A stretch of 64,000 nucleotides of DNA from positions 32,001-96,000 of IMG/VR virus record IMGVR_UViG_3300013286_000725. One strand, written 5' to 3'. Origin of the DNA: a virus. Below are positions 7,335-53,261 of this stretch, piece after piece; position 1 is the stretch's first letter; each line of letters starts with the position of its first letter. The notes under the pieces were generated by a model. That model searched no databases. It was not told the DNA's origin and saw nothing but the letters and a program-made list of their open reading frames with translations. A program made the translations under genes and the position numbers.

Positions 7335-7363
7335 TTGACATAGCTCATTTGTGGCTATATAAT
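7335..7363 (+). promoter_or_regulatory. sigma70 early promoter
   Basis: Perfect TTGACA-N17-TATAAT. Confidence 0.88.
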
Positions 7364-10724: not shown

Positions 10725-11456
10725 ATGCAAGACATTTTAAAAGACCTAGTAGCACATACACACAGTTTGGGTGTTATCCCTGTAATTAAAATCACAGGCA
10801 ATAGCAAAGAGACTGTTATTGAATCAATGGCTGAAGATCGTTCAGTTATTATCAATGCTAAAACACATGCGCCAGTTGCTGAGTTTTGTGGTACATTCGG
10901 TATGTCTAACTTAGACAAACTATCTTTACACTTGAAGAATCCAGAGTACAAAGAAAATGCAAAAATTCAAGTTGTACATGCTGAACGCAATGGTGAAGAA
11001 ATCCCAGTCAGTCTACACTTTGAAAACGAAACAGGTGACTTTGAGAACGATTACAGACTCATGAGTCAAGAAGTTATTGCTGAGAAACTTAAAAAGGTCA
11101 ACTTCAAAGGTGCTCAATGGTCCATTGACTTTGAACCTGCTGTTGCCAGTATTCAAAGACTGCGATTGCAGGCCGCGGCACACTCAGAAGAAAACTGTTT
11201 CCAAGTTAAGACAGAAAAAGATAATCTTGTGTTCTTCTTTGGGGATGCAAGCACACACGCAGGCTCATTCACATTCCAATCAAATATTGATGGCAAATTG
11301 AAACAGGCATGGTCATGGCCCGTGACACAAGTTATGAGTATTCTTGCTCTTGACGGCAACAAGACCATGCGCATTGCAGATGCAGGTGCTATGCAAATTA
11401 CTGTTGACAGCGGTCTTGTTGAATACAATTATATTTTACCCGCACAAAGCAAGTGA
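10725..11456 (+). CDS. probable DNA sliding clamp (gp45-like)
   Basis: 243 aa, beta-rich two-domain pattern, directly after the polymerase, ends with YNYILPA; inferred from context. Confidence 0.6.
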   Translation: MQDILKDLVAHTHSLGVIPVIKITGNSKETVIESMAEDRSVIINAKTHAPVAEFCGTFGMSNLDKLSLHLKNPEYKENAKIQVVHAERNGEEIPVSLHFENETGDFENDYRLMSQEVIAEKLKKVNFKGAQWSIDFEPAVASIQRLRLQAAAHSEENCFQVKTEKDNLVFFFGDASTHAGSFTFQSNIDGKLKQAWSWPVTQVMSILALDGNKTMRIADAGAMQITVDSGLVEYNYILPAQSK

Positions 11457-13138
11457 TGAATAAAAATCTAACAGCTACACAAAACGACTACGCATATTTT
11501 TTGCCGGCAACTAGTGGCTTTTACAGCACTTTTATCGGCAAACAACGCTACGGGAATTATGTGGATCCTGCTCGTGTTCCGCCCAGTCTAACTAACAGTG
11601 TAGAAAGTCTCAATTATCTAAATCCAGATAAAGGTGCATTTTACTTTGATCATTGTTTATATTCGGCAGGACACGCCAACTTAGATTTGACCAAACCAGA
11701 TGAAACCGAAGACATGTTTCGTAATAGAGATCGTAGCACAAGTTGGGTGTTGGGCGACTCGGGTGGATTCCAGATTGGTAAGGGTGTGTGGGAAGGCGAG
11801 TGGCGTGATCCTACAGGACCTGAAGTTGCCGCCAAATGGGCAGAAGTCAATGCATTAGGCATTGAACTGGTACCACAGTTCCATCCTACTGGTCATCCCA
11901 AGACTGACAAGAACGGCAATCAAAAGTTTACCCGAGTAGATCATCCTAAGCTCTATCAGGCTCGTTTAGATGCCGCACAAAAGAAGCGTGAACAAGTGTT
12001 AACTTGGATGGATGCACTGATGGATTATGGCATGGTACTTGATATTCCAGCTTGGGTTGAGCGTAGTCCTGCAGGTTGTAAGGCAACTGGTATTGAATCA
12101 TATCAACAGGCAGTTAATGCCACTAGGTATAATAACGAGTATTTTATCAAACATCGCGATGGCAACTGCAAGTTCCTTAATGTGTTGCAAGGCGAAACAC
12201 ACGATCAAGCAGAAGATTGGTATCATCAAGTCAAAGACTTTTGTGATACTAAGATCTATGGTGACAAAGCATTTAATGGTTGGGGTATGGGTGGACAAAA
12301 CATGTGTGATATTCACCTTGTACTCAAACGCCTAGTGGCTCTACGCTTTGACGGATTGTTAGAGCAGGGTCAACATGACTGGATGCACTTCTTAGGCACA
12401 TCAAAGTTAGAATGGGCTGTGCTGTTGACTGATATCCAGCGAGCTGTTCGCAAGTATCATAATCCCAACTTTACTATCAGTTTCGACTGTGCTAGTCCTT
12501 TCTTAGCCACTGCTAATGGACAGATTTATATCAACACAGAAACCGAAGATCGTACCAAATGGGTTTATCGTATGCAGGCGTCGGCTGATGATAAAAAGTA
12601 TGCCACTGATAGCCGACTGTTTAAAGATGCAGTATTGCAAGATAAAATATTTGAGAAGTTTGAATCAAGTCCAATTATTGATCAACTTGAAATGAAAGAT
12701 ATTTGTATCTATGCTCCGGGCGATCTAAATAAGAATGGTAAGGAAGGCGCAACCAGTTGGGATTCATTTAGCTATGCGTTAATGATGGGTCATAATGTGT
12801 GGATGCATTTGAACGCAGTACAAGAAGCCAATCGTCAATATGATTTGGGCAAATTGCCTGCCATGCTAGTTGACGAACGCTTTGATAGAGTGTATTATAA
12901 AGACATAGTAGAAGCAATATTTGCCTGTGATAACAGAGACGATGCTAACGCTATTGTCGAACATTACAGTAAATTTTGGATGATGATTATCGGTACACGA
13001 GGTGCAACTGGTAAAAAGACAGTTAATGCACATACAAAGGCAGAAGAATTTGGTATTCCTATGGTGGATTTTTCCGATTTAAAAATAATTAAAAAAGAAG
13101 AATCTAAAGAAAATAACTTTGCAGAACTATTTGAATGA
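11453..13138 (+). CDS. dpdA: DpdA / tRNA-guanine transglycosylase-like DNA base-exchange enzyme
   Basis: TGT motifs GDSGGFQ, LDIP, LNVLQG, HFLG, SFDCAS; linked to folE, queD-like and queE. Confidence 0.82.
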   Translation: MMNKNLTATQNDYAYFLPATSGFYSTFIGKQRYGNYVDPARVPPSLTNSVESLNYLNPDKGAFYFDHCLYSAGHANLDLTKPDETEDMFRNRDRSTSWVLGDSGGFQIGKGVWEGEWRDPTGPEVAAKWAEVNALGIELVPQFHPTGHPKTDKNGNQKFTRVDHPKLYQARLDAAQKKREQVLTWMDALMDYGMVLDIPAWVERSPAGCKATGIESYQQAVNATRYNNEYFIKHRDGNCKFLNVLQGETHDQAEDWYHQVKDFCDTKIYGDKAFNGWGMGGQNMCDIHLVLKRLVALRFDGLLEQGQHDWMHFLGTSKLEWAVLLTDIQRAVRKYHNPNFTISFDCASPFLATANGQIYINTETEDRTKWVYRMQASADDKKYATDSRLFKDAVLQDKIFEKFESSPIIDQLEMKDICIYAPGDLNKNGKEGATSWDSFSYALMMGHNVWMHLNAVQEANRQYDLGKLPAMLVDERFDRVYYKDIVEAIFACDNRDDANAIVEHYSKFWMMIIGTRGATGKKTVNAHTKAEEFGIPMVDFSDLKIIKKEESKENNFAELFE

Positions 13139-13888: not shown

Positions 13889-14274
13889 TTATCAAACAGG
13901 ACATCAGACCTAATAAAATGATTTGGACTACCTTTTGCAAAGAAGGCATGCACAAATATCCAGCCGCACTTACAGATCCAGCACTTGCTACAGGTGATGA
14001 ATATGATGTGAGTTTTCTAGGCTATCCGCACCGTCACATCTTCCACTTCAAAGTTTGGATTGGTGTCACACATGACGACCGTGATATTGAGTTTATTCAG
14101 TTCAAACGATGGTTGCTAAATCTCTACAAAGACAGTATACTAGCGTTAGACTACAAGAGTTGCGAAATGATTTCAGGTGATTTATATGAAGTCATTTCAC
14201 AAAAGTATCCCAATCGTGAGATTTGGATTGAGGTCTCCGAAGACGGAGAAAATGGTTCATTTATTAAGTACTAA
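13885..14274 (+). CDS. queD: QueD-like / 6-pyruvoyl-tetrahydropterin synthase T-fold protein
   Basis: HRH metal motif, DIEFIQFK, SCEMI and VSEDGENG; non-canonical, lacks CxxxHGH. Confidence 0.68.
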   Translation: MIIKQDIRPNKMIWTTFCKEGMHKYPAALTDPALATGDEYDVSFLGYPHRHIFHFKVWIGVTHDDRDIEFIQFKRWLLNLYKDSILALDYKSCEMISGDLYEVISQKYPNREIWIEVSEDGENGSFIKY

Positions 14275-14286
14275 GGAAAAGCTATC

Positions 14287-14547
14287 ATGGCTAAAATTAA
14301 TTACAGAGATTTTTCATATTTTGACAACCGTCCGGACATTGTTAAAATCTTTGACGATTTAGAAAAACTACACAACTTCTGCCGTATTGAGATGTTGCCT
14401 TTTAATGAGGCAGATTTGTATAATCGTAATAGTCAAGTTTGGAACAGCTATTACCATAGCACACGACCACGCAAGCCACGCGGTGAATGGCAACAACGCG
14501 GTGAATACAATCGCAGTGGGAATAACAATCGTAACTATCAACGATGA
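14287..14547 (+). CDS. hypothetical protein (86 aa) with Arg/Asn-rich tail
   Basis: AAGGA RBS; intact ORF. Confidence 0.75.
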   Translation: MAKINYRDFSYFDNRPDIVKIFDDLEKLHNFCRIEMLPFNEADLYNRNSQVWNSYYHSTRPRKPRGEWQQRGEYNRSGNNNRNYQR

Positions 14548-14591
14548 TTTATATAGTTGACATTGAAGCGGTTGATACTATAATTTTTTGA
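14544..14591 (+). pseudogene. vestigial 5' stub of a glycosyltransferase (MIYIVDIEAVDT-IIF*)
   Basis: ATGA-coupled 15-residue ORF aligning with the N-terminus of the downstream GT (IWIFSLECLET). Confidence 0.6.
14557..14584 (+). promoter_or_regulatory. sigma70 promoter inside the stub
   Basis: TTGACA-N16-TATAAT. Confidence 0.7.
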
Positions 14592-14716
14592 TAATGTATC
14601 GTTTCTTAAACGGAGTTGTTTGATAACTAGCAGCCCATCTAGCAGACGATACAGAAAAATTATTGTTGATAATCTTTTACCTTACACAGTTTCTTAAACT
14701 CACGGAGGCTTATTTA

Positions 14717-15832
14717 ATGAAACCCACAATTTGGATTTTCTCCCTTGAGTGTTTGGAGACCCGTTATACAAAACAATGGCACGAACACATTCCAAAATTA
14801 CTTAAACATAAGTTAGGCAATAAGTTTAATGTTGTTCAGGTCGACGGCGTTCAAAAGAATAGCCAACTCACTCCCGGTGCTTTCTTGAATTTTTCAGATA
14901 CCAACTATTGGAAAAGTTCTCAGTTATGTAATTTTTTAGAGCATCACAATAGGGGCGAGACTTCTACTGACGATCACATCCTTTTTACAGACGCATGGAA
15001 TCCTACAGTTATTCAACTCAAATATATAAAGGATCTATTAGGCTTTAACTGGACACTCCACGGACTATTTCATAGTGGATCATACGATAACCAAGACTTT
15101 TTAGGTCGACTAGTTGGCAATAAGCCTTGGGTTAGAAACGCTGAAAAAAGCTTCTTTCACGCATTTGATCACAACTACTTTGCTACCAAGTTTCACATTG
15201 AATTGTTTCATAGAGAACTGCTCAACGGTGGATTGCAAACTGAAAACCCATGGTACGAAGACGAGCTTGCAGAAATAATGAATGGCGAATATCCAAGTAT
15301 TGTTCGTACTGGCTGGCCCATGGAGTATATGGATTCAACTTTGACCATGTATAAAAACATGCCCAAGCGTGATCTTATCTTGTTTCCGCATCGCATTGCT
15401 CCAGAAAAGCAAGTTGATATATTCCGTGATTTAGCTACACACTTGCCACAATATGAATTTGTAGTTTGTCAGGATCAACAACTGACTAAAAACGAATATC
15501 ATAATTTGTTGGGAGAAGCTAAACTAGTGTTTAGTGCTAACCTTCAAGAAACACTTGGCATTAGTTGTTACGAAGGTGCTGTAGTAGATGCCATTCCAAT
15601 GGTGCCTGATAGACTTAGCTATACAGAAATGTATTATGATACATTTAAGTATCCAAGTGAATGGACAGAAAGTTTTGAAGCGTATGACACTTGTAGACAA
15701 TCTTTATGTTTCAAAATTATACAGTATATGGACAATTATACTAGTTTTGTTCCACAAGTAAAAAAACAAGCAAAGGACCTACATGACAACTTCTTCAGTG
15801 CCAACGGACTACTCAACAATATTAAGCAGTGA
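14717..15832 (+). CDS. GT-B fold glycosyltransferase (GT4-like)
   Basis: CGGAGG RBS before ATG 14717; FPHRIAPEKQ and ANLQETLGISCYEG (E-x7-E) donor-binding motifs. Confidence 0.85.
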   Translation: MKPTIWIFSLECLETRYTKQWHEHIPKLLKHKLGNKFNVVQVDGVQKNSQLTPGAFLNFSDTNYWKSSQLCNFLEHHNRGETSTDDHILFTDAWNPTVIQLKYIKDLLGFNWTLHGLFHSGSYDNQDFLGRLVGNKPWVRNAEKSFFHAFDHNYFATKFHIELFHRELLNGGLQTENPWYEDELAEIMNGEYPSIVRTGWPMEYMDSTLTMYKNMPKRDLILFPHRIAPEKQVDIFRDLATHLPQYEFVVCQDQQLTKNEYHNLLGEAKLVFSANLQETLGISCYEGAVVDAIPMVPDRLSYTEMYYDTFKYPSEWTESFEAYDTCRQSLCFKIIQYMDNYTSFVPQVKKQAKDLHDNFFSANGLLNNIKQ

Positions 15833-16184
15833 CACTATTACTATTACTGGGTACGAACCTAGTAATTTTAGCACTATACAACCACTGACTACTAATCAAA
15901 TAGTTACTATCGGTTCAAGTAATAGTAGTGTGTATTATACTGCACCCAGTATGACAACTATGTCAACTATTAACTCTGGTTCCATTAATACTGTCTCTAT
16001 TGACACCAACTTGTGGAATACATCTTTTAATTTGCCGATTGATTGGGTAGATGCTTTTCCGTCTTGGGATAAAGTTCAAGACATGTGCAAGCAATATCCC
16101 AGTTTAGAAATAGCACTTAGAAATTTTCAAACCATCTATCAGCTTGTGAAAGACGACTATGATAATCCAGCGCCTAAAAAATAA
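15783..16184 (+). CDS. hypothetical protein with Thr/Ser-rich N-terminus
   Basis: AGGA RBS; overlaps GT end; helical C-terminal domain. Confidence 0.7.
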   Translation: MTTSSVPTDYSTILSSDTITITGYEPSNFSTIQPLTTNQIVTIGSSNSSVYYTAPSMTTMSTINSGSINTVSIDTNLWNTSFNLPIDWVDAFPSWDKVQDMCKQYPSLEIALRNFQTIYQLVKDDYDNPAPKK

Positions 16185-16632
16185 GTTTTTTTCTTTTTTA
16201 GAAAAGCACGACCGTAAACGAATAATCATGGATCGGCAATGCGACGAACCACTGTTGACTCGTTACTACTTGTTTTTGAAAGATCGTAAACAGTTTCCTT
16301 TCAATGTGTTCTTACACAAGTTTCACAAAGGCGATCCTGGAGATGTGCATGATCATCCTTGGCCATACGCTACATTGATACTGGCAGGCGGCTACTACGA
16401 ATACACTCCTAATTTTGAATACGGCCAAATGGTCAGTGAAACCAAACACTGGCGTGGCCCTGGGCATTTTAGATTTTGCAGTGCCAACAGCTATCACCGC
16501 ATAGAATTAAAAGAAGGCGTTACTCCTTGGACACTGTTTATGCCTGGTCCACAACGACAAGAATGGGGATTCTGGGTAAACAACAAATGGATTCATAATG
16601 ACAACTACCTCGAAGACCGTAAAAACAGTTAA
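16159..16632 (+). CDS. cupin-fold protein
   Basis: HDHPW...GGYYE...YHRIEL cupin metal motifs. Confidence 0.78.
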   Translation: MIIQRLKNKFFSFLEKHDRKRIIMDRQCDEPLLTRYYLFLKDRKQFPFNVFLHKFHKGDPGDVHDHPWPYATLILAGGYYEYTPNFEYGQMVSETKHWRGPGHFRFCSANSYHRIELKEGVTPWTLFMPGPQRQEWGFWVNNKWIHNDNYLEDRKNS

Positions 16633-40175: not shown

Positions 40176-40182
40176 TATTTAT
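40176..40182 (-). promoter_or_regulatory. late promoter (ATAAATA)
   Basis: Overlaps the stop of the giant gene, upstream of ATG 40155. Confidence 0.55.
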
Positions 40183-43100
40183 CGTGGCCAGATAGTAGTA
40201 CTTTTCTTCACGAAATTAGCAACAATACTATTGGAATTTCTTAAAGATTGGTCCATCTCTCCCCACAACTGTCCTTGTTTTTTTACTAAAATGATTTTAG
40301 TGTTAGCAGCTGGTGGTGTTCTCAAACTGACAATACTGTTATTGACTGTAAATTCAGGCGGTAGTATTATGTCGCCGGCAGGGCTATACGGATATCCTAA
40401 AGTTTCAGAATACACTGTATATGCTGATTTTTTCAAACGATAGCCGCCAACAAATACTTCAATTTCATTAATATTATCAATATTAAAAGTAGGAGTTACA
40501 GTTGTACCAGTACCATCTGCTATGAATGTTTCTACTAACTCGCTATCAGTATAAGGAACAGTTTCTCCTGAACTAACATCTTGCACTAGAGAATTAACTG
40601 CATGTATTGTGGGAACTCCGGTTCCCAAAGTTCCTCGTCTTAGTTGACTAATAACATTGCCTAGTTTGTAAAAATATTCAATTCGTTCTCCGTTGATAAA
40701 CACCACACCTGGAAGATTCAGTGTTGGATTTGGCGTGGTTAATACTGATCCGTCAACAACTGCAATATCAGCAGAAGTTTGTTTCACTGCTTCTCTTAAT
40801 GTAGTTGAAGATGCTGCATTTAATCTCTTGTAGTGTGTTCGATTTAAAATATCTTTAAATTGCATAAATCCGAAACTATTTTCTTTAATAGGTATTCCAT
40901 TAAATGCAATGACTTGTATAACATCAGTGATTACTAGGGTAGATGTCAGCTGAATTGTTTTATAGTCAGACAAAATAATATAATCTACATTTAAAGTTAA
41001 TAATTGATTATTTTTAATAACCCATACTCTATCTTCAGCAACAACTTTGTCTGCTAATTTAAATTTTCCGCCAGTTTTGGCAGTAAATTCAAAATACTCA
41101 CTAGTATCTGGAACTAAGGTTGTTGCTGGTATCATCGTATCAGTTGTTCGTTTAATATCCAAAATAGAATGATTGTAGAAAGTGGTAACATCTATAGCAG
41201 TGTCTTGAGCATGTAGATTTTTAAATGTTATTGTGCCATTGTCGTTAATTCTGTAATCGTCATTGGCATCAACAACGATTGTCAATTTGGCATTATTAAT
41301 ATACGACGACGGTACTAACACAACTGAGATTGTGTCGCTGTTTACTGTGAAGTCAGCGCCAAAATTTAATTTTATTCCGTTGACAAATACCCTAATATCA
41401 GTTACGGCAAGATTGTATGGTGCGAATTGATAGGTAGGAATAGTATATTCTAATTGATTGTCGGCCAGTATATGATAAAATGCAGTTGGCGGTTTAAGCA
41501 CTGTTGATCCTGCACGAACCAACACATTGGTTTCGTAGGGTAGTAATCCAGGAGTAGACAACACAGACGATGTCAAATTATCTAAACTGTAGGTATAATC
41601 AGTTCCGTTAGTTATTATTGATTGACTTTTTACAATACTGCTAGTACTGTCATTGACATTGATAATATATGTAACAATGCTACCGTTGGTCGGAATAGTT
41701 CCAAATCTAATTGCGGTTCTGTTGTTGCTGGCGTAAGTGTTATCTGTTTTAAACAGTACATAGTTTACTATCACGCCGTCAACTAACACAGTGGCATTCA
41801 AATTATCTTCTAACCACGGTGCCCGTGTAACAAACTCGTTAGTAGTACCGTCACTGACAAAATAATCTATATCTAATAGATTAGTACTACTAGGTCCAAA
41901 ACTGATTATGCTGACTACTGAATTCGCTGTAGGCACATTGACCAATGTGACCAAATTAGTGTTCATATCAATTTGATAGTCACCGGCTTCAATAATAGTT
42001 GTTCCAACTTTGACTATTATTGAATGATTTAATAAAAGTTTTTGAGCTATTGAATAAGTTGCTCCAACGCCGTCGGCTAGATAATTTTTAAAGAAAATAG
42101 TTGAATTGCCGCTGCTCGGTCTAGTATAAACTTTTATGGCCAAACTATCTAATATTTGTCCAGGTACAACTTCTTCGGGTGCGTGACTTGTCATGGGTGT
42201 AACAAACCCATCACCGTCAACATTGATATCATCAGGATTGACACCTATTGCTGTGCTTAATACTGTGCCTATAAATCGTCCGCCGTCCAGACTAGTGTCG
42301 TAAGAATCAGCATCAGGTGTTATACTGCTATCGCTTGCACGATTGTTTGTGTAGGAATCCCATTGATCAGATGCCCATCCTGCATCATTGTCCCAACCGC
42401 CTGCAATATGGAAATCTAATCCGCTTATATTAACTCCTGCATAATCAACACCGGTCATCAACTGAGAAAGATCTTTGGCGATTTCACCGGCTGCTGGGTT
42501 GTAATAAAAATTAATTCTATCAGTTGCAGACAAGTGATTAAAATCTTTTTCATAGTCAACAACAATCTTGGCACCTTTAGCAGGAGCAGAATCTAATTTT
42601 AAAATGCCAAAATATTTTGTAGTTCCATTTGCAGTAGTAGAAGTATTAGATAAAGAATATTCGTTTTTTAATACCTCAATTCCGTCTACAGTAACTCGTT
42701 GATAGATTGTAATTTCTGTTTTTGGGCTCCAAGTCAGCGAAAATTGTAGTCTTGATCCCGTACCAGTGAAAATATCAGTATGTAACAGAGTCGACGAATA
42801 GTAGGATTTTGAGATTCTATCAAATTTAATTGCCAATTTGCTAGTTCTAACAACTTCACTTTCTATTATAGCAACAGCTCTTGCAGCCACACCTCGAATT
42901 CCTAGGCCGCCGGCTAATACAATTTGTGGAGCTTTTAGGTAACCCGTTCCTTGATTTACTAGATCAATTCTATTGACTTTCCCGCCGGCTATGTATGCCT
43001 TTGCTACTGCATTTTGTCCGTAGCCGTCCAAGATCTTAACCACAGGTTCTGAAATATATCCAGAGCCGCCATCAACAATCTTTATCGAGTTTATTTTAAA

Positions 43101-46100
43101 TCCAACATTTTCTAACCACATTTTCCAAGGATAAGTGTTGATAACCGCCGAGTCGTATTCTACAATTCCTTGATCAGATACCGATACTGCAATAGGATGT
43201 ATCTGCTGAGTTGAATCTATTACTGGCAATAGATCAAAATCTGATACAGCATGTTTTGCGTAATCTATAGAATCATACGCACTGACATATTCTCTAATTT
43301 TTGTTCTATAAGGTTTGACTTCGTTAACATAATCCTCAAAGTTTTTAAGATTATCGTTGTTATAAGTTACTTTTTGTTTGAGCATGCCGACATTGTGTCG
43401 TGCTTTGACAAAGCTAGTTTTGAATGCCCAGTCAACAAAACTTTGTTCATACATAACATATCGCAAACTTGCGAAGAACAATTTTAAATATTCTAATCGC
43501 AATTCGTTGATTAATAACTTGTGCTTTATAGTGTCTAAAATTATGTTCAATTCTATGCTGGCAAAGTCGTCATATGTTGCGCCGTCATACAATTGATCAT
43601 CAAAACCCAATACAGTATTTGCATAATCATATAGACTACTTGAAAATTCAATTGTGCCGTTATATCTGCCAACAACTGTGTAATTTTGTGTATAATCAAT
43701 TGTAACAGTATTACTGTATTTTTGTAGTAATATCCAGCCTCCGGTTCCAATATTTTTTACTTTGACAACATCTCCAATATTTGAAGTTAATGATGATAAG
43801 AAATAGGTATTGTCCACAATGTAATCAATTTTTGTAAACTGATTATACCCGGTAGCATACCAGTCAATATATTTCCAAAATTTTGTAACATCATAGGACT
43901 GTGATTTTACTCGAGCCCAAGATTTAGTTCCAGCATTCCACTGCAATATTGCCCATTTATCAAACACAAACGCATCGCTAGTGACTAAAACAGAGTATGG
44001 TCGTATACTTAAACTAGTGGTAAGGGTGTTGTAGCCTTCGCCGCCGTCGAGGATAGTGTAACCGTTTATTCTACCAAGATTATCTAAAGTTGTTTTAATT
44101 ACAGCACCATTGCCCGTTCCAGTTACAGTGACAAATGGAGCATTAATATATCCAAATCCTTTGTTAGTAAAACTAACTTCAGTAATTACTCCTTTCACCA
44201 CGGTAGCAGTGGCAGACGCTTGAGAAAGATTTGAAGTTCCAATATATTGTAATTCTGCCCCCAACGAGATTGTGATATCCCATTTGCCTGTTATATAACT
44301 AGGGGCAGATTCATACTTTGATAAACTGGTAATATCGTGTGAGTCAGAAATTAAAACTTTTGCTAACACTGTGTTAGTTCTAGTTATGAATTGCTTTAAT
44401 GCTTCTAACCTATTGATAAACATACCTTGTCTTGGTCTAAATTGGACTCCGTAACGCTGTTTAACAGGTAACGATAAATTAGGAACTGTTTCATCATTGG
44501 CGTCGCGACCAGAAAGACTGTGAAACCATTTAGTTTCAATTTGTGCCGGTAATTCAGTGTCAATGTCTTCGCTGATTATTTTCCATTCGGTATGAAGATT
44601 TAATTCTTGATTATCAACAGTCCAATACTCTACATGTAAAGCAATGTCTGTAGATTTTAAATATTTTTTGCAATTGACTAGGTTAAAACTGTTGGTCCCT
44701 GTAAGTGCAAGACAGCTATAGCCATAGGCAGTTGGATCCGTAATCAGCGAAGATACTTCGGCTGCCGATAATGATCTGCCTAGTGCATTAGGTACAATCT
44801 GTTTGTTTCTAACCCAGAAATAGTAGGTAGTGATCAATACTTCACTAACAGAATCATAGCGTTGGCTTGTACTATATACTGCATCACCATACAAACTCTT
44901 GCCGCTTATATTGACAGCAAGCCCTGCTTCAGTATCTGCCCTGGCATCCCATTGACTTGGTTTTAGTCTTGACGATACCCATTCGTAAACATCAATACTA
45001 GCACTATTATACAATTTGTTCCAATTAGTACTTCTGTAAACAATGTCGCCGTCTACATTTTCTATGAACTTGGCTCTTGTAAGATCCCACCACAGCACCC
45101 CAACTTTGTCAGCTAACCAATTTGCACCGTTATCTATGTTAGCGCCTGAAACTGTTTTATCAGTGTAGGAGTATACTGCTGGATCATAGTATGTTTTATA
45201 TCTAATTTCTTGATCAGCTACTCCGGGAATGTGTCCTTGGATAGGCTCAACAATATCAAGATAAGTCACAATCTGATTTGACTTTTTATTATACAAGAAT
45301 ACTTTTTTAATTTTGTCAAGATTTATTCTATCAATCTGTTTGTGGTAAACTGACCAGGTCTTACTTCCAGCATTTTTTGTATAACTATAAACTAGTCCAG
45401 AATTAACAACAACCTTATCTTCTTCTTGTGGTGCCCCTACAATCACAGTATTATTTCCTACTGCAACGGACATACCGTATCTAGTAGATATTGGAAGTGC
45501 ATCGTTTGACACAATTCCCGAGAAACTTTCTGCATAGATAAACTTAGTGTTATACCTATCAAAAATATCAACTCTTCCAGATTGTATTAATCTATCAATA
45601 AATTTTAAAGACTTACTGTCAAAAGTTGTCATACCAGTGTCAAACATTGTGTCATTGCTGATATTTCCGTTAGCTGACAACACTACTAGAGAATTTGAAG
45701 AATCTATAAAACTAACAAATGCACCATAATGTTCATTTTCTTCATCTTTAGGACTTGATATTGTCTGTAAAAGATCATAGGTAAAATTAGAATCAATAAG
45801 TTTATTAAAAATATTTACTTTGCCATCTGACACGCTGGTTAACGATGACAACGGTGAGCCAACTGCTAGGTAGGCGCCGGTGGTTGATAAAGAAACACTT
45901 TCTCCAAATCTATCCCCGTCATCAATTGTTGGCACTTGTTGTCCACCAATGGTTGACATTAGACTGTAGGATGCTCCGTCGTATTGATATAAAAATATTC
46001 TACCGGTATTGGGATAATTTTGATTAGATAACAGAGTCCAGTTGGCATTAGGCGGTGCATCTGTTGTTGTGTGTAGTGCTTTAAAATAATTACCTGCATT

Positions 46101-49100
46101 GACTACCACTTGATTTGCAGTATAGAGTGTACCAAACTGATATTCTCCTTGTAATCCAGCAAAACTATTTTGGTCTGATCCCGGAGCACCAACAACTAGG
46201 ATATCACCCGTTTTAGTTGCGCTTACAGAATATCCAAATTGATCACCGGCAAATGTTACAGCAGACAATGTCTGCGTATGTGTCCAGGTAGTATTGGAAG
46301 AAGTGTATATGTCAACTTGTCCTTGTGACGAATTATAACCAACACTAGACACTGCTAGCATGTAGGTTGTTGCAGCACCAACAGAGTATTGACTAAAGGC
46401 CAATTTAGAACCAAATTGATCATTGGCTAAGATATTATTAGGCGGCGTTAGCACAGTGGTAATATTAAAACTTACCGACCCAATTGATATTATAGTTACT
46501 GTATTTGTTGTAGGATTACTATAGGCCAATATATTGCTGTCTGGACTAAATGCAATATCACCTGTTGCAATAGTTGTTATAATATTTGTGTAATTGTCCC
46601 AGGTGCCGTCGATGTTCTTACTAGATAGACTTATTTTATTATTATCGGCAACAGCAATAGTATTACCATTTAATGATACTGCAATTTTTTTACCGTAATT
46701 TAATCCTGTACTAGGAGATAGATTTGTAACTAAATTTTCATTATAAACGGGGTTGTTTTTATAAACCGTCCATTGACCAAGACCGTTGTTATCTGCCCAT
46801 AGTAGCTCATTAAGTTTGATAGACTTTGGCAATACTGTATTTGCATTGTCAATACTGTCAACCCTGCTCTTAATAAACTTGTATGAAGTAATTTGAGAAA
46901 GATCTTTAACTAAAAATTCAGTGTGTGTAAATCCTTCAACCGTTGCGTTGATATTAATTGTGGCATTTGTTATGGAATCTATTCGATAAAATCTATTCAA
47001 TGCTTTGGTGTTTTTGATACCAATTATGTCGCCTTGACTAACATTAGGTATTCTATTACAGACAATACTTAACACTTCGTTAGAGTAGGTTACATCAAGA
47101 ATTTTAAAATCATTTCTTGTGAATCTATAAACATTCCAATTAGCAGATTCAAATGCACACCATACATAATCTCCATCATTAAAAGCTGTTATATTTTGAG
47201 AAAATATATTGTTTTTAAGGCCGGTTAACGAATCAATACTATAATTGACATCATCGTATCTTACATACCCTGGGGTCCTTAAATACCCATCTTTATTTGA
47301 TACCGGCCATGGATTATTATTATAACCTACAGGTTTAATGTATACATCAGTAGGTATTTGTCTATAGACAAAGTCTAATAATGCAGGATCAACACGATTA
47401 ACTAACTCAAAAGGCTGAGGATTTATTTTAAATTCAGTTTCGTCTAAAATAAATTCTATTTCGTCAAATGTATCAACTGCTCCGTACTCTCCAACACGAA
47501 CTGCCCATTCTTCATTAAAAGTCAAACTTTCCATGTGATCTGTACTAAGCACATCAAATAACTTGTTTAATACATTCTGAGTACCTTTTTCAATTATCAT
47601 TCCCTGATAAAATTTGTACTGGCTTACATCGTCCTGTATGATGTTGGCAAGATACTGCCTCGGTTGGTATCCAATTAAATGTTGAGCAAACTTTTGTTGC
47701 TGTACATCAAAATTTCCGCTGTTTAGATTATAGAAATCTGTAAATTGCTCAACTTTGTAATCCCAATTTGGTAATAATTGAGGTGTTGGTTGTTTAGTTA
47801 ATTTTACCCATTGTTTGTCATTAAATTTATTTGCGCCGGGTAATGACACTGTTGCACTGTAGTAGAATGATTTATATTTTACAATGTCGCCTAGATGATA
47901 ATCGGTGTAAGGGGCCCAGTCACTTATTTTAGCTTGGTCAAAAATGAATCCAGGAATATTAAATGAACCGTTCCAATTTTTTGTTATGTATCCAAGCACT
48001 TTGACTTTTTCTTGTCTATAACCTGGTTCAAGGTTATAAATTACATCATTAAACATTGTACGATTATCTAACAACAATACATGTTCTTTTTGTACTAAAA
48101 ATATTACTGCACCATATATTCCGTGCTGAGTATTGGATGATGCTAATACAAATCCACTGTCGTTTCGATAGATATTAGTTAGATGTAAATCTAACATTTG
48201 TCCATCAACTCTAAAAATATGATATCCGTAAAATGCATCGTTGATATCGTTTACTGTGGTAAATTCAGTAATTAGTGTTAGTTGAGATGCGGCAGGACTT
48301 AGGCTCAGCACAGTGCCGCCGGCCCATCCTTGAGTTGTCCAGAATACGAATTCATTAGCAGCATTAGTCCAATTATTAACTGTGGTTAAATTATTATTAA
48401 AATTATCAAATGTAAACCCTTGATCTTTTAAATATTCACCGTAACCTAATAAAAAATCTACTACAGACTGAATTGAAGATAACTGAGCACCGTAGCTTAA
48501 AACATTCTCGGTGGTCTTATCCCATGTATCTCTAATATAAAAATCTACGCCGCCAGTATTTGGCAGTCCTGATAACTTTGCAAACAGGCCGGTATTAAAT
48601 GCAGTTAAACTAGTGTGTGTAGATGTTACTCGATAATATGCACTGCCGTATCGTACTACAGTGCCAACAAGGTAATATTGATTTTCACTCCAAGTAACAT
48701 AGCTTTCACTAAGGCCGGCAATGTTGGTTAATTGACCTTCTAGTTGGTAAGAATAATATTTAAAATAGGGATGCTCGTTTGTATAACCTGAAATTTCAAA
48801 TGATGTTCCGTCTGCACCTTTTGTGATAATTACACCGCTGTAGATTAGTTTTTGTACAGGACTGCTAGTGTTTAAAAATATATTATAATTTTCTTGCGGG
48901 ACAAAAACTCCGCCGGTGCTAGCAGGATTTTTACTGTCTAAAAGTAAATTAAATTTGGGCTTGCTGGTAAAGCCTCCAAGTTTTGATCCTAATTGATTTG
49001 TTAAAGATTGTAAATCTGCCATATACTGATCTACAAGCGTGGTGGTTTCGCCTGACATATAATCAACAATATAATTGACCAGTCCTGCTGTAAATACTCT

Positions 49101-52100
49101 GCTAGTACTTAACACAGTGCTAGGCAGTTCAATGTCGGCCAATCTAATTCTTAAACCTGTTTTACTGTAAACAAATTGTCCTGCTAGATTTTTTACAATT
49201 CTACTACGATCAAAACAAGTGCCTAGTACTTTGTTTGGTTTTAATAAAAGAGCAGTTTGCATCAGTGCAAATGGATAATATGACGATTTACGCCATGCCG
49301 ATTCAACTGGGCTGTAATCCCCAAATACATAATTGCTAGAAATTGCAGTGCTAAAATAACCATCAATAAAATTTGTATCTAATGGATTTAACAGATTGCC
49401 TTGTTCGTCAACAGGGAGACCGTTGTTTAAAATAGTTCGTATGAATCTTGCATCCTGGCGGACTACTTTATTTGGTTCTCTAATAATACCGTTTTGTATG
49501 TCTTCCCATAATAATAGGTTGCCGCTTGTATAAGGTGCCGGCCCATATACTTTAGTCCACCACTTAGGTTCTTCGCTAAACCCTAGCGTTTCCCAAGGAG
49601 TAACATTTGGCCTATCAGTATCTAGAAACCATTTATAAATACCTCTCCAATAAGCAGGAATATTAGTGCCACGAGGACTATAGCTGCTAGCATAATTAAA
49701 AGTAAACGGGTCACTTCCGTTATAATCAGTTTGCTTAGTATAATCTTGTGCTATTAGTTGTGTCCACTGATAAAAAAAGATGGCTAGGACTTGTTCAAAT
49801 TCTTTCTTTGAGTAATTTGTAGTTCTATCATATCCAGGAATAAATTCATAGATATCAAAAATATCAGAGTCGTAGTTGACTTTGATATTATTGTAAATTC
49901 TTTTTTCTAATTCTAATAATAGGTCATCTCTGAAATCGTTAAATGCAATAGTGATACTACCGTCGTGCCCTTGTATAACTTTCCGTGGAGTCCTATAGGT
50001 ATTGTCAACATAAATCTTAGGCTCAAATTTAGGATATAATCCTAATTTAGTTGGTGTTGCGGGACAAAAACTGCCATCTGTCGAATGATATTCGTAGGCT
50101 TCAATTATTCCGCCTTCGGTCAACTCAATATGTAATTCAAAGAAAACATCTGAACCAAAGGTATAATCTTTGCCGTGTAATAACTGCATACCGTTATAAT
50201 ATATATTGACTGTTTGATTGCTCAACTTAGTGAGATCAAATGTTTCAGTTAACGGATATTTTTTAATTCGTGCATCTAGTACTATATATTCTGATCGGAC
50301 AGACCCGCTGTATGCAAACATGTCAGACAGGTAGTAAGATTGAGTTTTAGGAATGTTCGCAGTGACTATTGACAATACATGATCAACATGCTGTTTAACT
50401 TCTGTGTCAATACCCGATTCGTTTGCGGCAATTAAGAACGCTCGTTTAAACTTAGCATAATCATCTTTTGCAGTACTTAATGCTTTAAATACATTTGCTT
50501 GTTGATTGCCTAAGTGGTATAGACTTAGATTAACTGATCCGCTGTGTTGAACAAACTTTGTTCCGTATGGGGTTAAATCTCCTAAGTCTCTTAGATTACT
50601 GTTTCCAGGGTAAGCGCCGACGAATCCAGTAATGTTATCAATGATTGAATCAACATGATTAATAACTTCACCTAAGGTAAAATTAATTAAATTATCATTC
50701 AAAGGATTGTTTTGTAAATTAATTGGAATTTCATAATAACCGTTTTGATTTTTAGAACTAGCACTAAAACATTTTAAAGTGACAACATCTGTTAAAGTAA
50801 CATCGGTGTTTAGACGAATTAATTTTATCGATGCTGTTGTAACAATTGAAAACTTGTTTTGGTCTAGACGATGCCCATTAACATACACACGAATTACTAG
50901 ATCCGTTAGGGTGTTTACATTATTATAAACATCAACAGGAAAATTGTTTATTAAATTACTTTGTTTAAAAATTCTTACCACAGGCTGTATACGATCAACC
51001 AGTGATTTTTTCCAACCATTTACATAGTTAAAAGTTATAAGATTTGTGATTAATTTTAAAAATCCAGTATTTGTATTTTTAATACTAACCTGTGTGTTGG
51101 TTTTGTATTCAAAACTGTCATTTAACAAATCAAAAGTAAACGAAATGTCTCCAACATTATTAATATTCTGATACGACAGCGCAAATCCCAGTTCAGTATC
51201 AATCAAAGAAGATAAACTAGGTTTATAAGAAAATAATTTGGTTCCTACAAATTTTGATCCAGGGTATACCGTAGTGTCACCATAGCTGATACCATTAGTG
51301 TCTACCACATCAAATAGAGGAAATTGATTAACTTTGAGTTTAACAGGCCCTAATTTCCAGGCTGTGCCGTCAAACCAATACATATTTCCTTGGTTTGTAG
51401 TACCTTGTCTAACTAATACAGTCTCATTTAGTTTTGGTGTTGCGTCAGCTTCTTCAACCAAGTTGATTTGTCTTAGTTGACCCGTTTGATCTGAGAGTTG
51501 ATGAGTCCCTGCTCCTATTTTTAACAAATCAACTGGTGCAGTTAATGACTTGTTAAGATATAATTTGATTGCAGTGTTGCTGATAACATATACATAGTAA
51601 CTCTTACGGTTCAGTAATCCAGAAATATCACTATTGGCATTATTTAAATAGATAACTTGTGTTCCTGTTACAAATCCGTGCGGTGAGCCGACTGAAAAAT
51701 TAATTATATTTTTATCTATATCAATTTGGCTTGCATCAAATTCAGAAATTTTTGCAGGATCTTGTATGGTTAAAAAATTGACCTTGTAAATTTTATTTTT
51801 AACTCTACCGTCAGTGTCTGCAGAAAATAACACACGCATGCCGTTAGTCAAAGGAACACCGTCAACAAGGTAGCCTAAACTTCCTTCAACACCGCTAAAG
51901 GCATCAGTAGTAACAGTATCAATTACATCAATGTCTGTCTTACACTGATGCCCAAAATTAAATAATTTTAATCCTGCTTGGAATTCAATAATAGGTCTTT
52001 TTGCCCTTGCTGCCTGATCAAATTCAGGAACTTGCCCTGTTGCAGATGCAATTGCAGTGATTACAGACTGATGGAACCATCGATTATATCGACTCCACGG

Positions 52101-53261
52101 ATTCTTATCTGGACTGCCTCTAGCAATGGTGATATAATCTTTAGTATTGGCTGCGCTAGCAGATGAACTGAACGGTTCCTGATCAAAAGGGGTACTATCA
52201 AACAGTGTAGAAGTTTCAGAACTATAAGCAGAAACAATCTCTGTATCTGCTTCAGAAATTAATCTTATAGATGACCCAACACCTTCTACATACCAATAAC
52301 CGTTAGAATATTTTTCAGGTGTTACTTTTCCAATGAAATCTAATTTCATTCCATTAGTTAAAGGAGTGCCGTTACCTAATGTATATTTTTGTTTGTTTAA
52401 AATATCAGTTTCAACATTTAAATAACTGTTGTTGTCAATATCTAGTATATGGAACGCTCCCCCAGTGTCGGCATCTGTTTCACTTACATAAAATAACACA
52501 CTAGGAGCAGTATGTGGGACTGTAAAAATAATCTGTCCTTGAGAAATACTATTGTTTATCAGTCCGTCGTTGACAAATCTATTAAGAGTGTCTGCCGACC
52601 TGATGGTCTTAATGCTGAACGGATTGTTAGGACTTGTTATATTAAATCTATAAGTTTGTCCTCTATACAATGTTATTGTTGGGTTAGGTGTTAGGCCATC
52701 ATTACTAAAAGTATATGCATAATTGCCGCCTTGATCTACTAGATTAACAGTATAGGTACTGTCAATAGCAATCTGTTGCCCTGCAACTATTATAGGGGTT
52801 GGGCCAAATGGTAACCAATAGTACTGTTGAAAGTTAACAAACTTATCCCAATCAATATGCGGATCCCAACTATAGAACTCTTGCTTATTTAGGCGTTCAT
52901 GATTAGATACATTGCCGCCAAAGGTGTCAATGTTGTTAATATGATCAATATAGTCTTTATAGAAAGTAACATTTCCGATATAATCTTTTATAACAGCCGC
53001 AGGTTCTAATTGATAATTTTGTCTCGTTTGATCGCTAGCTGCTAAGAAGACATCGTTGCCATTTGTAGATTTGGCATTTTGTCTACCAATAAATCCGTCA
53101 ATTTTTTTAACAGTTCCAGGCTGTGTTAGTTGATTTAATGTTGCCTGTAAAAACTTTTTATTACTGTCAGTTCTATAATATGTAGGAAGTAAGCTGGCAG
53201 AAAATCTAGCATTGTTGCCCGGAATAGGAAGACCGTATTCGCCTTGGTTGTCAGTTGTCAT
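40179..53261 (-). CDS. giant baseplate/tail protein (4360 aa), possibly gp7-like
   Basis: Follows the gp6-like gene; VNEVKPYRTK motif; FG-GAP repeats; CBM5/12-like W-x4-Y-x2-G modules. Confidence 0.75.
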   Translation of the reverse strand: MTTDNQGEYGLPIPGNNARFSASLLPTYYRTDSNKKFLQATLNQLTQPGTVKKIDGFIGRQNAKSTNGNDVFLAASDQTRQNYQLEPAAVIKDYIGNVTFYKDYIDHINNIDTFGGNVSNHERLNKQEFYSWDPHIDWDKFVNFQQYYWLPFGPTPIIVAGQQIAIDSTYTVNLVDQGGNYAYTFSNDGLTPNPTITLYRGQTYRFNITSPNNPFSIKTIRSADTLNRFVNDGLINNSISQGQIIFTVPHTAPSVLFYVSETDADTGGAFHILDIDNNSYLNVETDILNKQKYTLGNGTPLTNGMKLDFIGKVTPEKYSNGYWYVEGVGSSIRLISEADTEIVSAYSSETSTLFDSTPFDQEPFSSSASAANTKDYITIARGSPDKNPWSRYNRWFHQSVITAIASATGQVPEFDQAARAKRPIIEFQAGLKLFNFGHQCKTDIDVIDTVTTDAFSGVEGSLGYLVDGVPLTNGMRVLFSADTDGRVKNKIYKVNFLTIQDPAKISEFDASQIDIDKNIINFSVGSPHGFVTGTQVIYLNNANSDISGLLNRKSYYVYVISNTAIKLYLNKSLTAPVDLLKIGAGTHQLSDQTGQLRQINLVEEADATPKLNETVLVRQGTTNQGNMYWFDGTAWKLGPVKLKVNQFPLFDVVDTNGISYGDTTVYPGSKFVGTKLFSYKPSLSSLIDTELGFALSYQNINNVGDISFTFDLLNDSFEYKTNTQVSIKNTNTGFLKLITNLITFNYVNGWKKSLVDRIQPVVRIFKQSNLINNFPVDVYNNVNTLTDLVIRVYVNGHRLDQNKFSIVTTASIKLIRLNTDVTLTDVVTLKCFSASSKNQNGYYEIPINLQNNPLNDNLINFTLGEVINHVDSIIDNITGFVGAYPGNSNLRDLGDLTPYGTKFVQHSGSVNLSLYHLGNQQANVFKALSTAKDDYAKFKRAFLIAANESGIDTEVKQHVDHVLSIVTANIPKTQSYYLSDMFAYSGSVRSEYIVLDARIKKYPLTETFDLTKLSNQTVNIYYNGMQLLHGKDYTFGSDVFFELHIELTEGGIIEAYEYHSTDGSFCPATPTKLGLYPKFEPKIYVDNTYRTPRKVIQGHDGSITIAFNDFRDDLLLELEKRIYNNIKVNYDSDIFDIYEFIPGYDRTTNYSKKEFEQVLAIFFYQWTQLIAQDYTKQTDYNGSDPFTFNYASSYSPRGTNIPAYWRGIYKWFLDTDRPNVTPWETLGFSEEPKWWTKVYGPAPYTSGNLLLWEDIQNGIIREPNKVVRQDARFIRTILNNGLPVDEQGNLLNPLDTNFIDGYFSTAISSNYVFGDYSPVESAWRKSSYYPFALMQTALLLKPNKVLGTCFDRSRIVKNLAGQFVYSKTGLRIRLADIELPSTVLSTSRVFTAGLVNYIVDYMSGETTTLVDQYMADLQSLTNQLGSKLGGFTSKPKFNLLLDSKNPASTGGVFVPQENYNIFLNTSSPVQKLIYSGVIITKGADGTSFEISGYTNEHPYFKYYSYQLEGQLTNIAGLSESYVTWSENQYYLVGTVVRYGSAYYRVTSTHTSLTAFNTGLFAKLSGLPNTGGVDFYIRDTWDKTTENVLSYGAQLSSIQSVVDFLLGYGEYLKDQGFTFDNFNNNLTTVNNWTNAANEFVFWTTQGWAGGTVLSLSPAASQLTLITEFTTVNDINDAFYGYHIFRVDGQMLDLHLTNIYRNDSGFVLASSNTQHGIYGAVIFLVQKEHVLLLDNRTMFNDVIYNLEPGYRQEKVKVLGYITKNWNGSFNIPGFIFDQAKISDWAPYTDYHLGDIVKYKSFYYSATVSLPGANKFNDKQWVKLTKQPTPQLLPNWDYKVEQFTDFYNLNSGNFDVQQQKFAQHLIGYQPRQYLANIIQDDVSQYKFYQGMIIEKGTQNVLNKLFDVLSTDHMESLTFNEEWAVRVGEYGAVDTFDEIEFILDETEFKINPQPFELVNRVDPALLDFVYRQIPTDVYIKPVGYNNNPWPVSNKDGYLRTPGYVRYDDVNYSIDSLTGLKNNIFSQNITAFNDGDYVWCAFESANWNVYRFTRNDFKILDVTYSNEVLSIVCNRIPNVSQGDIIGIKNTKALNRFYRIDSITNATININATVEGFTHTEFLVKDLSQITSYKFIKSRVDSIDNANTVLPKSIKLNELLWADNNGLGQWTVYKNNPVYNENLVTNLSPSTGLNYGKKIAVSLNGNTIAVADNNKISLSSKNIDGTWDNYTNIITTIATGDIAFSPDSNILAYSNPTTNTVTIISIGSVSFNITTVLTPPNNILANDQFGSKLAFSQYSVGAATTYMLAVSSVGYNSSQGQVDIYTSSNTTWTHTQTLSAVTFAGDQFGYSVSATKTGDILVVGAPGSDQNSFAGLQGEYQFGTLYTANQVVVNAGNYFKALHTTTDAPPNANWTLLSNQNYPNTGRIFLYQYDGASYSLMSTIGGQQVPTIDDGDRFGESVSLSTTGAYLAVGSPLSSLTSVSDGKVNIFNKLIDSNFTYDLLQTISSPKDEENEHYGAFVSFIDSSNSLVVLSANGNISNDTMFDTGMTTFDSKSLKFIDRLIQSGRVDIFDRYNTKFIYAESFSGIVSNDALPISTRYGMSVAVGNNTVIVGAPQEEDKVVVNSGLVYSYTKNAGSKTWSVYHKQIDRINLDKIKKVFLYNKKSNQIVTYLDIVEPIQGHIPGVADQEIRYKTYYDPAVYSYTDKTVSGANIDNGANWLADKVGVLWWDLTRAKFIENVDGDIVYRSTNWNKLYNSASIDVYEWVSSRLKPSQWDARADTEAGLAVNISGKSLYGDAVYSTSQRYDSVSEVLITTYYFWVRNKQIVPNALGRSLSAAEVSSLITDPTAYGYSCLALTGTNSFNLVNCKKYLKSTDIALHVEYWTVDNQELNLHTEWKIISEDIDTELPAQIETKWFHSLSGRDANDETVPNLSLPVKQRYGVQFRPRQGMFINRLEALKQFITRTNTVLAKVLISDSHDITSLSKYESAPSYITGKWDITISLGAELQYIGTSNLSQASATATVVKGVITEVSFTNKGFGYINAPFVTVTGTGNGAVIKTTLDNLGRINGYTILDGGEGYNTLTTSLSIRPYSVLVTSDAFVFDKWAILQWNAGTKSWARVKSQSYDVTKFWKYIDWYATGYNQFTKIDYIVDNTYFLSSLTSNIGDVVKVKNIGTGGWILLQKYSNTVTIDYTQNYTVVGRYNGTIEFSSSLYDYANTVLGFDDQLYDGATYDDFASIELNIILDTIKHKLLINELRLEYLKLFFASLRYVMYEQSFVDWAFKTSFVKARHNVGMLKQKVTYNNDNLKNFEDYVNEVKPYRTKIREYVSAYDSIDYAKHAVSDFDLLPVIDSTQQIHPIAVSVSDQGIVEYDSAVINTYPWKMWLENVGFKINSIKIVDGGSGYISEPVVKILDGYGQNAVAKAYIAGGKVNRIDLVNQGTGYLKAPQIVLAGGLGIRGVAARAVAIIESEVVRTSKLAIKFDRISKSYYSSTLLHTDIFTGTGSRLQFSLTWSPKTEITIYQRVTVDGIEVLKNEYSLSNTSTTANGTTKYFGILKLDSAPAKGAKIVVDYEKDFNHLSATDRINFYYNPAAGEIAKDLSQLMTGVDYAGVNISGLDFHIAGGWDNDAGWASDQWDSYTNNRASDSSITPDADSYDTSLDGGRFIGTVLSTAIGVNPDDINVDGDGFVTPMTSHAPEEVVPGQILDSLAIKVYTRPSSGNSTIFFKNYLADGVGATYSIAQKLLLNHSIIVKVGTTIIEAGDYQIDMNTNLVTLVNVPTANSVVSIISFGPSSTNLLDIDYFVSDGTTNEFVTRAPWLEDNLNATVLVDGVIVNYVLFKTDNTYASNNRTAIRFGTIPTNGSIVTYIINVNDSTSSIVKSQSIITNGTDYTYSLDNLTSSVLSTPGLLPYETNVLVRAGSTVLKPPTAFYHILADNQLEYTIPTYQFAPYNLAVTDIRVFVNGIKLNFGADFTVNSDTISVVLVPSSYINNAKLTIVVDANDDYRINDNGTITFKNLHAQDTAIDVTTFYNHSILDIKRTTDTMIPATTLVPDTSEYFEFTAKTGGKFKLADKVVAEDRVWVIKNNQLLTLNVDYIILSDYKTIQLTSTLVITDVIQVIAFNGIPIKENSFGFMQFKDILNRTHYKRLNAASSTTLREAVKQTSADIAVVDGSVLTTPNPTLNLPGVVFINGERIEYFYKLGNVISQLRRGTLGTGVPTIHAVNSLVQDVSSGETVPYTDSELVETFIADGTGTTVTPTFNIDNINEIEVFVGGYRLKKSAYTVYSETLGYPYSPAGDIILPPEFTVNNSIVSLRTPPAANTKIILVKKQGQLWGEMDQSLRNSNSIVANFVKKSTTIWPR

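Follow-up and report, generated by a model that had tools for sequence, protein, structure and literature searches.

Free-standing endonucleases are well known as mobile elements of T4-type phages, in which SegB, SegF, SegG and MobE bring about intronless homing and localized marker exclusion (PMC2330249, PMC2790892, PMC2988022). We describe here a locus of comparable architecture from the IMG/VR record IMGVR_UViG_3300013286_000725, a viral genome of 105.8 kb, of which a window of 64,000 nucleotides (nt; record positions 32,001-96,000) was analyzed. The gene concerned encodes a glycosyltransferase (GT) of GT-B type and is preceded by a small gene termed g86. As in T4-type intronless homing, free-standing HNH or GIY-YIG genes are found beside a gene which has diverged in relatives lacking a homing-endonuclease gene (HEG), the co-conversion tract is short and has sharp edges, and the HEGs are polymorphic for presence and absence and subject to degeneration. 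The segment from g86 to GT codon 124 is very probably a hot spot for free-standing HEGs, and the window would record several of their invasions. The following features, given in window coordinates, constitute the locus.

14287 to 14547, plus strand: g86, the upstream gene of 86 amino acids (aa), whose TGA stop shares an ATGA with the ATG of the dead GT head.
14544 to 14591, plus strand: mini open reading frame (mini-ORF) MIYIVDIEAVDTIIF, followed by a stop; 15 codons with the ATG at 14544.
14557 to 14584, plus strand: predicted sigma70 promoter with TTGACA at 14557-14562, a 16-nt spacer and TATAAT at 14579-14584 (12/12).
14578 to 14661, minus strand: relic 1, the 3' end (27 codons and the stop) of an HNH homing-endonuclease gene termed HEG-1.
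14660 to 14709, minus strand: relic 2, derived from another HNH HEG (HEG-2) that is unrelated to the first, and comprising about 13-16 codons (..EFKKLCKVKDYQQ) and the stop.
14701 to 15088, plus strand: type-A module, a foreign patch of 388 nt consisting of a 16-nt leader with GGAGG and GT codons 1-124.
14717 to 15832, plus strand: chimeric GT-B glycosyltransferase, 371 aa, full length; ATG at 14717, homologues align from residue 1-5.
15089 to 15832, plus strand: resident 3' two-thirds of the GT, of type-B lineage according to its identity to type-B loci; the nearest relative is L018.

At least 597 relatives of the GT are contained in IMG/VR, and 80 of these loci were compared; the relatives, numbered with an L, are metagenome-assembled contigs. 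Their GT N-termini split into two types. Type-A heads start with MKPTIWIFSLEP.ETRYT, as does the GT of the window, and type-B heads start with M.(V/I)FL(V/I)DLE.VETRYTGQWK. A preliminary description of this DNA, made without any database, had pointed to a mini-ORF coupled to g86 by an ATGA and had interpreted it as the broken start of the downstream GT. All features of this ORF were found as described, and it is indeed a dead GT head; its best match, however, is the type-B allele and not the head which the GT carries at present. The 11-mer of the mini-ORF ranks first among 115,952 stop-free six-frame 11-mers of the 105.8-kb genome when scored with a type-B profile, which comprises the 11 residues before RYT and was built from 53 type-B relatives. 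It is identical to the type-B sequence VFLVDLEAVDT at seven of 11 positions and to the present GT head at four of 11. Codons 1-12 (14544-14579) constitute the decapitated type-B head, and the last three codons together with the stop are the antisense of an endonuclease stub.

The position of the mini-ORF was compared with the gene arrangement in the relatives, in which homologues of g86 stand before the GT. An overlap of 1-35 nt between the upstream ORF and the GT start was found in 49 of 50 type-B loci, so the mini-ORF is located where a type-B GT should begin, whereas a gap of 19-422 nt separates both genes in 20 of 23 type-A loci. Intact relatives read ...EAVDTRY or EAVETRY without interruption, as had been predicted, and the exact ...EAVDTRY was found in L063, L066 and L068. 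Relatives that bear endonuclease relics have kept 12-15 head codons and show the same junction as the window. Dead type-B heads among the relatives range from 12 to about 90 codons; those of L007, L102, L108 and L122 comprise 61-89 codons and are broken just before the FTDAW motif.

The GT itself is a chimera. Between 12000 and 18500 the window can be aligned collinearly with type-B loci, the nucleotide identity being 70-80%; only the stretch from about 14490 to 14966-15092 is excepted. Type-A loci align to the window over the GT and small patches only. The collinearity points to a phage of type-B lineage with a foreign head. Calculated per bin, GT residues 1-120 show an identity of 60-95% to type A (first locus set) and of 35-52% to type B. 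For residues 121-320 the identity to many type-B loci amounts to 85-100%, with 46-88% in the variable bin 161-200, and that to type A is lower (35-62% for residues 161-200). The type-A module shows only eight mismatches over 388 nt to the contig L099 (97.9% identical), with which 98% of the first 120 GT residues are common. Its flanks are 30-50% mismatched to the same contig: the 50 nt on the left are unrelated, and about 30% of the positions on the right are mismatched. L099 is otherwise about 70% identical to the window and possesses an intact endonuclease gene adjoining its type-A GT. The right crossover, 15088/15089, corresponds to GT codon 124 and lies in the conserved stretch coding for HSGSYD. 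An in-situ tandem duplication with subsequent divergence was ruled out on account of the 98% identity between the head patch and a foreign contig.

Separate trees of the 5' and 3' parts of the GT, which had been suggested as a check for recombination, turned out to be incongruent, in agreement with the sharp breakpoint at 15088/15089. In the N-terminal tree a single branch (SH-like approximate likelihood ratio test, SH-aLRT, 93) separates the 24 type-A rows from the others, and the window stands beside L099. In the C-terminal tree the nearest neighbour of the window is L018, a type-B locus; the label A requires at least 12 changes on this tree, at least six of them forced by well-supported branches, and a single A clade is rejected by the approximately unbiased (AU) test (delta lnL 168, p 0.001). 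A replacement head thus begins at 14717, as had been proposed. The preliminary description had taken it to be divergent, but it is a normal, family-typical type-A head and not an aberrant one.

The same junction and the same relics were encountered in several independent contigs, which stem from different samples (L011, L084, L087, L098, L096, L148 and L153). This speaks against a mosaic produced by metagenomic assembly, although the relatives are assembled contigs and the patch, with its 388 nt, is short. Moreover, window and L099 have no common sequence at the left edge of the patch, which makes a graph switch between the two impossible there. Mini-ORF and promoter could also be chance look-alikes, but the head match is unique in the genome and perfect promoters exceed expectation more than 30-fold. 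We consider an explanation by assembly artefact or chance very improbable.

The spacer between the dead head and the GT (14592-14716) has the length of 125 nt noted before; it is not the anonymous non-coding gap it had been taken for, but is filled by relics, as its minus strand carries the 3' stubs of two different HNH HEGs. Relic 1 shows 100% aa identity to the C-terminal end of an ORF of 309 aa which is intact in L107 and L098 (E 2e-12) and matches PHROG endonuclease/HNH families (8e-26 and 9e-19). The stop codon of HEG-1 (CTA on the plus strand, 14578-14580) abuts the final codon of the dead head. Relic 2 represents the 3' end (..EFKKLCKVKD.., then the stop) of an intact 271-aa HNH ORF in L084 (IMGVR_UViG_3300027708_000035), a contig that aligns to 14548-14709 at 83% (E 1e-45); the 271-aa ORF matches phrog_655 'homing endonuclease' (3e-32). 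An intact copy of HEG-1 or HEG-2 was not found in the genome of the window. The Shine-Dalgarno sequence of the GT, GGAGG, is located at 14704-14708. Its surroundings, 14701-14709 (CACGGAGGC), align with antisense HEG-2 codons of L084 (CCCAGAAGC), and the ribosome-binding site of the GT may be derived from endonuclease coding sequence.

Further endonuclease genes occur at this site in the relatives. HEG-3 is encoded antisense, directly upstream of the type-A GT in L099, L005 and L105, and matches DUF7487 and phrog_3339 'homing endonuclease'; one of the relatives' HEGs scored against a PHROG homing endonuclease with 1e-12. HNH motifs are visible in the translations of the relatives' HEGs. The long dead heads are followed by a sense-strand ORF of 219 aa (L102:2056-2715, L108:896-1555, L007 and L122) which gave no match to Pfam, PHROG or PDB. 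Its neighbours in a protein language model are viral NUMOD3/GIY-YIG (SegE-type) clusters, which serve as a lead only; it is probably an unrecognised homing endonuclease of Seg type. The different stages of occupation can be found side by side: HEG-1 is intact in L107, L116 and L148, HEG-2 is nested in the HEG-1 stub in L084, L087, L151 and L152, stubs alone are left in the window and L011, and L153 shows a near-complete deletion. L084 and L087 carry a dead type-B head, the HEG-1 stub and intact HEG-2, and then a third, diverged GT head (MTVYIVDLEKLETRYTKQW...); each HEG type therefore seems to be tied to its own diverged head. Junction-specific scans of IMG/VR detected no loci beyond those already collected.

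A match to an HEG family between g86 and the GT was present in 12 of 26 type-A loci and in none of the 53 type-B loci, which, the rows being related to each other, is a descriptive count and not a probability. Four endonuclease families occupy this spot and converge on the same 400 bp. Such a convergence of unrelated families is difficult to reconcile with HEGs as bystanders in a tolerant intergenic spot, as would be the case if co-infecting A and B phages had undergone ordinary homologous recombination. A conserved coding stretch around the right crossover would be expected of any homologous exchange, and the patchy mosaicism of the GT 5' region among many loci as well as the type-A loci without HEGs agree with it. 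Simple homologous exchange would not, however, be expected to leave stranded type-B heads; HEGs or their relics are placed exactly between dead and new heads in the proportions given above, and the stop codon of HEG-1 abuts the break. We regard ordinary recombination as an improbable explanation for the locus.

HEGs commonly ride in introns, and the 50-nt bypass of T4 is linked to an HEG cassette. It is conceivable on these grounds that a group I intron, an intein or a ribosomal bypass of the T4 gene-60 type joins the stranded head to the downstream frame. The last codon of the head and the codon before the downstream RYT both specify Thr, which fits such an element; one is ACT and the other ACC, however, and the putative take-off codon is not followed by a stop. 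Joining the head (MIYIVDIEAVDT N-terminus) would duplicate residues 1-15 of a GT that is complete with its own ATG and Shine-Dalgarno sequence and whose homologues begin at the same residue. A comparison of 14200-15200 with Rfam, including introns, gave no match at E <= 1, and the leader folds only modestly (z = -1.96). With no Rfam match, a modest fold and a complete downstream gene, intron, riboswitch and bypass were dropped, and we judge the probability of splicing or recoding to be negligible. The leader hairpin at 14595-14653, whose z of -1.96 refers to shuffled sequences, lies in former coding sequence and was rejected as an RNA element. The direct repeat GTTTCTTAAAC (14601, 14689) is not a genome-wide motif.

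The junction between dead head and relic 1 contains a predicted promoter. As the preliminary description had recognized, TTGACA and TATAAT stand 16 nt apart, the -35 element being supplied by the dead head with its V-D-I codons. At the break, the antisense of the last Leu and stop codons of HEG-1 plus one T yields the -10 element. The promoter is the sole sigma70 site with a 12/12 match in 10-20 kb of the window. Perfect TTGACA-N16/17-TATAAT sites occur six times in the genome, all on the plus strand (window positions 7335, 14557, 25390 and 62758 and window-relative positions -12483 and -5363), whereas 0.18 would be expected according to Markov simulations. Besides the site at 14557, four of the remaining five are located about 15-25 nt upstream of a start codon, and judging from these sequences the phage evidently relies on consensus promoters of host type. 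Several of the perfect sites are accompanied by a GC hairpin within the spacer or near it, e.g., 25390 and -12483. A further sigma70-like site with an 11/12 match (14321-14348, TTGACA-16-TAAAAT with TG before the -10 element) lies within the 5' part of the g86 coding sequence.

According to the junction alignment, the window, L107 and L153 lack 5 nt which L084, L087 and L116 keep, and the 16-nt spacer of the promoter results from this absence. L107 and L153 have TTGATT in place of the TTGACA of the window. Sites with at least 10/12 matches are found in the head or junction of seven of eight relic-bearing loci, in several registers, compared with 2% of corresponding segments of the genome. The relic-bearing loci do not count as independent cases, as the TATAAT they share is inherited. 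No terminator was predicted between g86 and the GT, and the promoter may therefore add to read-through instead of replacing it. The site at 14557 is a strong prediction, from which we infer promoter activity.

The preliminary description had proposed that an insertion or gene conversion of homing-endonuclease type decapitated the resident gene, uncoupled it from the operon and gave it a foreign head. The heads of the relatives, the conflict between the trees, the breakpoint and the HEG relics all bear this out. In the ancestral state g86 and the GT would have been overlapping and co-expressed, as in 49 of the 50 type-B relatives. HEG-1 would then have entered the GT in antisense orientation at about codon 13-15, within the conserved site coding for ETRYT, and would have brought along, or been linked to, a complete alternative 5' module of type A. 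As this module was supplied together with HEG-1, the GT would have stayed functional and 12-15 type-B codons would have been stranded. In a second step HEG-2 may have overwritten most of HEG-1, and in a third its deletion may have left the two nested 3' stubs that form the 125-nt spacer. The last step is likely to have been a gene conversion of the 388-bp patch of leader and head with its right crossover in the HSGSYD-coding region; the patch is nearly identical to a distant phage carrying HEG-3 (L099), which indicates that this conversion was recent. As a consequence the GT would have lost its translational coupling and be served by its own Shine-Dalgarno sequence and a perfect predicted sigma70 promoter 132 nt upstream.

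Several points weigh against this scenario. The left edge of the L099-like patch (14700/14701) lies outside the sequence shared with L099, so that L099 itself may not be the donor and the transfer may have run in either direction. Type-A loci with neither HEG nor dead head exist (L008, L009, L104, L115, L123, L125 and L127), which makes type A a native allele, too, in some lineages. The TATAAT is inherited from the coding end of HEG-1 (IIKKL and stop), and its recurrence in relatives is no independent sign of selection; the predicted promoter could be silent or redundant with upstream read-through. As metagenome-assembled contigs, the relatives could formally include assembly chimeras, yet the same junctions recur across samples. 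Finally, the relics, the chimerism, the breakpoints, the association with HEGs and the sequence of the promoter are directly evident, while we infer the activity of the endonucleases, including their cleavage of type-B DNA, as well as their target sites and the order of events.

The sequence of the GT gave no match to Pfam, PHROG, NCBIfam or the sequences of the PDB, and megablast of 14000-16200 against GenBank phages found no match either. A model predicted by AF2 (AlphaFold2) from 45 relatives (pLDDT 91.8, pTM 0.89) displays a GT-B fold with two Rossmann domains. Foldseek returned more than 400 PDB matches for this model at E <= 0.001, the best being GT-B enzymes of GT4 type with E down to 2e-11; among the matches are glycogen synthase, BshA, MshA and tetrahydrobiopterin glucosyltransferase. 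On the basis of the model, the GT is a GT-B-like (GT4-like) enzyme outside any named curated family. It has the two-Rossmann GT-B fold in common with the GT4-type enzymes, but differs from them in having no sequence match to a family. Homologues are present in the jumbo or large phages Phosso, the PA5oct group and ACP17, where their genes are located beside those for FolE, QueD and QueE and overlap the upstream gene.

In the AF2 model the patch covers beta1 to beta4 of the N-terminal Rossmann domain. Among 130 positions of the N-terminal part, 49 are conserved in both head types alike, including the motifs ETRYT, QW, TPGAFLNF, TN, FTDAW and HGL.HAGS.D. Another 23 are fixed differences between A and B, each conserved within its type and some located next to the TN motif. 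The type-A head occurs on at least six different C-terminal backgrounds, which argues for an equivalent function of A and B. A new acceptor specificity, which had been suggested for the replaced head, was supported by none of the tests, and the conserved motifs are common to both types. The 23 fixed differences leave room for a changed specificity, and the head swap may have caused one. It is plausible that the divergence between A and B reflects an immunity of type A to the endonucleases.

The surroundings of the GT resemble a gene cluster for DNA modification. The gene g561 (561 aa, 11453-13138) contains a DSGGFQ motif, which we take to be that of tRNA-guanine transglycosylases (TGT) and DpdA. 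Its product is 33% identical (E 2e-85) to a 540-aa protein whose gene directly precedes that of the GT in a PA5oct-like phage and is a candidate DpdA/TGT-like enzyme. Comparison of g561, g86, g133 and g170 with Pfam, PHROGs and NCBIfam yielded nothing informative, and BLASTP detected no similarity between a 424-aa protein of ACP17 and g561. The window also encodes FolE, a phosphoribosyltransferase, a HIT-family protein and a QueE-like radical-SAM protein, and according to this gene content the GT is located in what appears to be a phage DpdA/7-deazaguanine cluster. DpdA-dependent 7-deazaguanine modification of DNA has been described in phages including ACP17, a glycosylated derivative not being mentioned there (PMC10516641). 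The PolB of the window is of the T4 gp43 type and closest to those of Phosso and Atu_ph07. Elsewhere in the window, the minus strand at 40179-53261 is occupied by a single ORF of 4360 aa, with further very long ORFs of 1975 aa and 1136 aa on the same strand at its flanks.

Taken together, a more far-reaching interpretation can be offered tentatively, although we hold it to be rather doubtful as a whole. The HEG cassette, rather than being concealed in an intron or intein, would carry a complete, cleavage-immune spare 5' module, and the gene would thereby survive its entry into the most conserved coding site, ETRYT. Endonuclease drive would preserve the A/B dimorphism of the acceptor-side half-domain, which may alter the target of a GT of the 7-deazaguanine cluster, and the stranded head would have been recruited, together with the HEG stop, as a promoter.

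The locus provides a base-by-base natural record of the life cycle of HEGs, which invade, super-invade, decay and are lost within an enzyme gene of what appears to be a DNA-modification cluster. It suggests that selfish nucleases can shuffle enzyme half-domains across at least six genetic backgrounds, that a promoter was likely born from dead coding sequence, and that HEGs may occupy a coding target by a route alternative to introns and inteins. For annotation it follows that a short coupled mini-ORF or an unusual leader in front of a phage gene can be the scar of an HEG and that GT phylogenies in these phages need to be built per module.

In comparison with described systems, intronless homing as such is already known, and its characteristics are found here in the sequence: an ORF with a nuclease domain, which is intact in relatives and present as relics in the window, presence/absence polymorphism and apparent co-conversion. 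The locus differs in the apparent insertion into a coding sequence together with a spare full-length head, in the stranded heads of several lengths, in the nested relics and in the predicted promoter at the junction. In contrast to T4-type intronless homing, HEGs would here have inserted within the coding sequence, around codon 13-15 or around codon 86 of the GT, the function of the gene would have been kept by the complete spare 5' module, leaving a dead head, and nested relics of two HEGs are preserved. In ICP1, HEGs likewise mark the borders of mosaic segments between related phages (PMC10448857); the window adds a dead gene head, a domain swap within an enzyme and a predicted junction promoter to that picture, the text on ICP1 containing neither remnants nor promoters. 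Gene 39/60 of T4 with mobA and its bypass, the split nrdA of Aeh1 and genes fractured by split inteins (PMC2677866) also harbor an HEG in a coding sequence without loss of function. There the protein is split, or bypass or trans-splicing takes place, whereas in the window the 5' module appears to have been replaced and the upstream fragment discarded.

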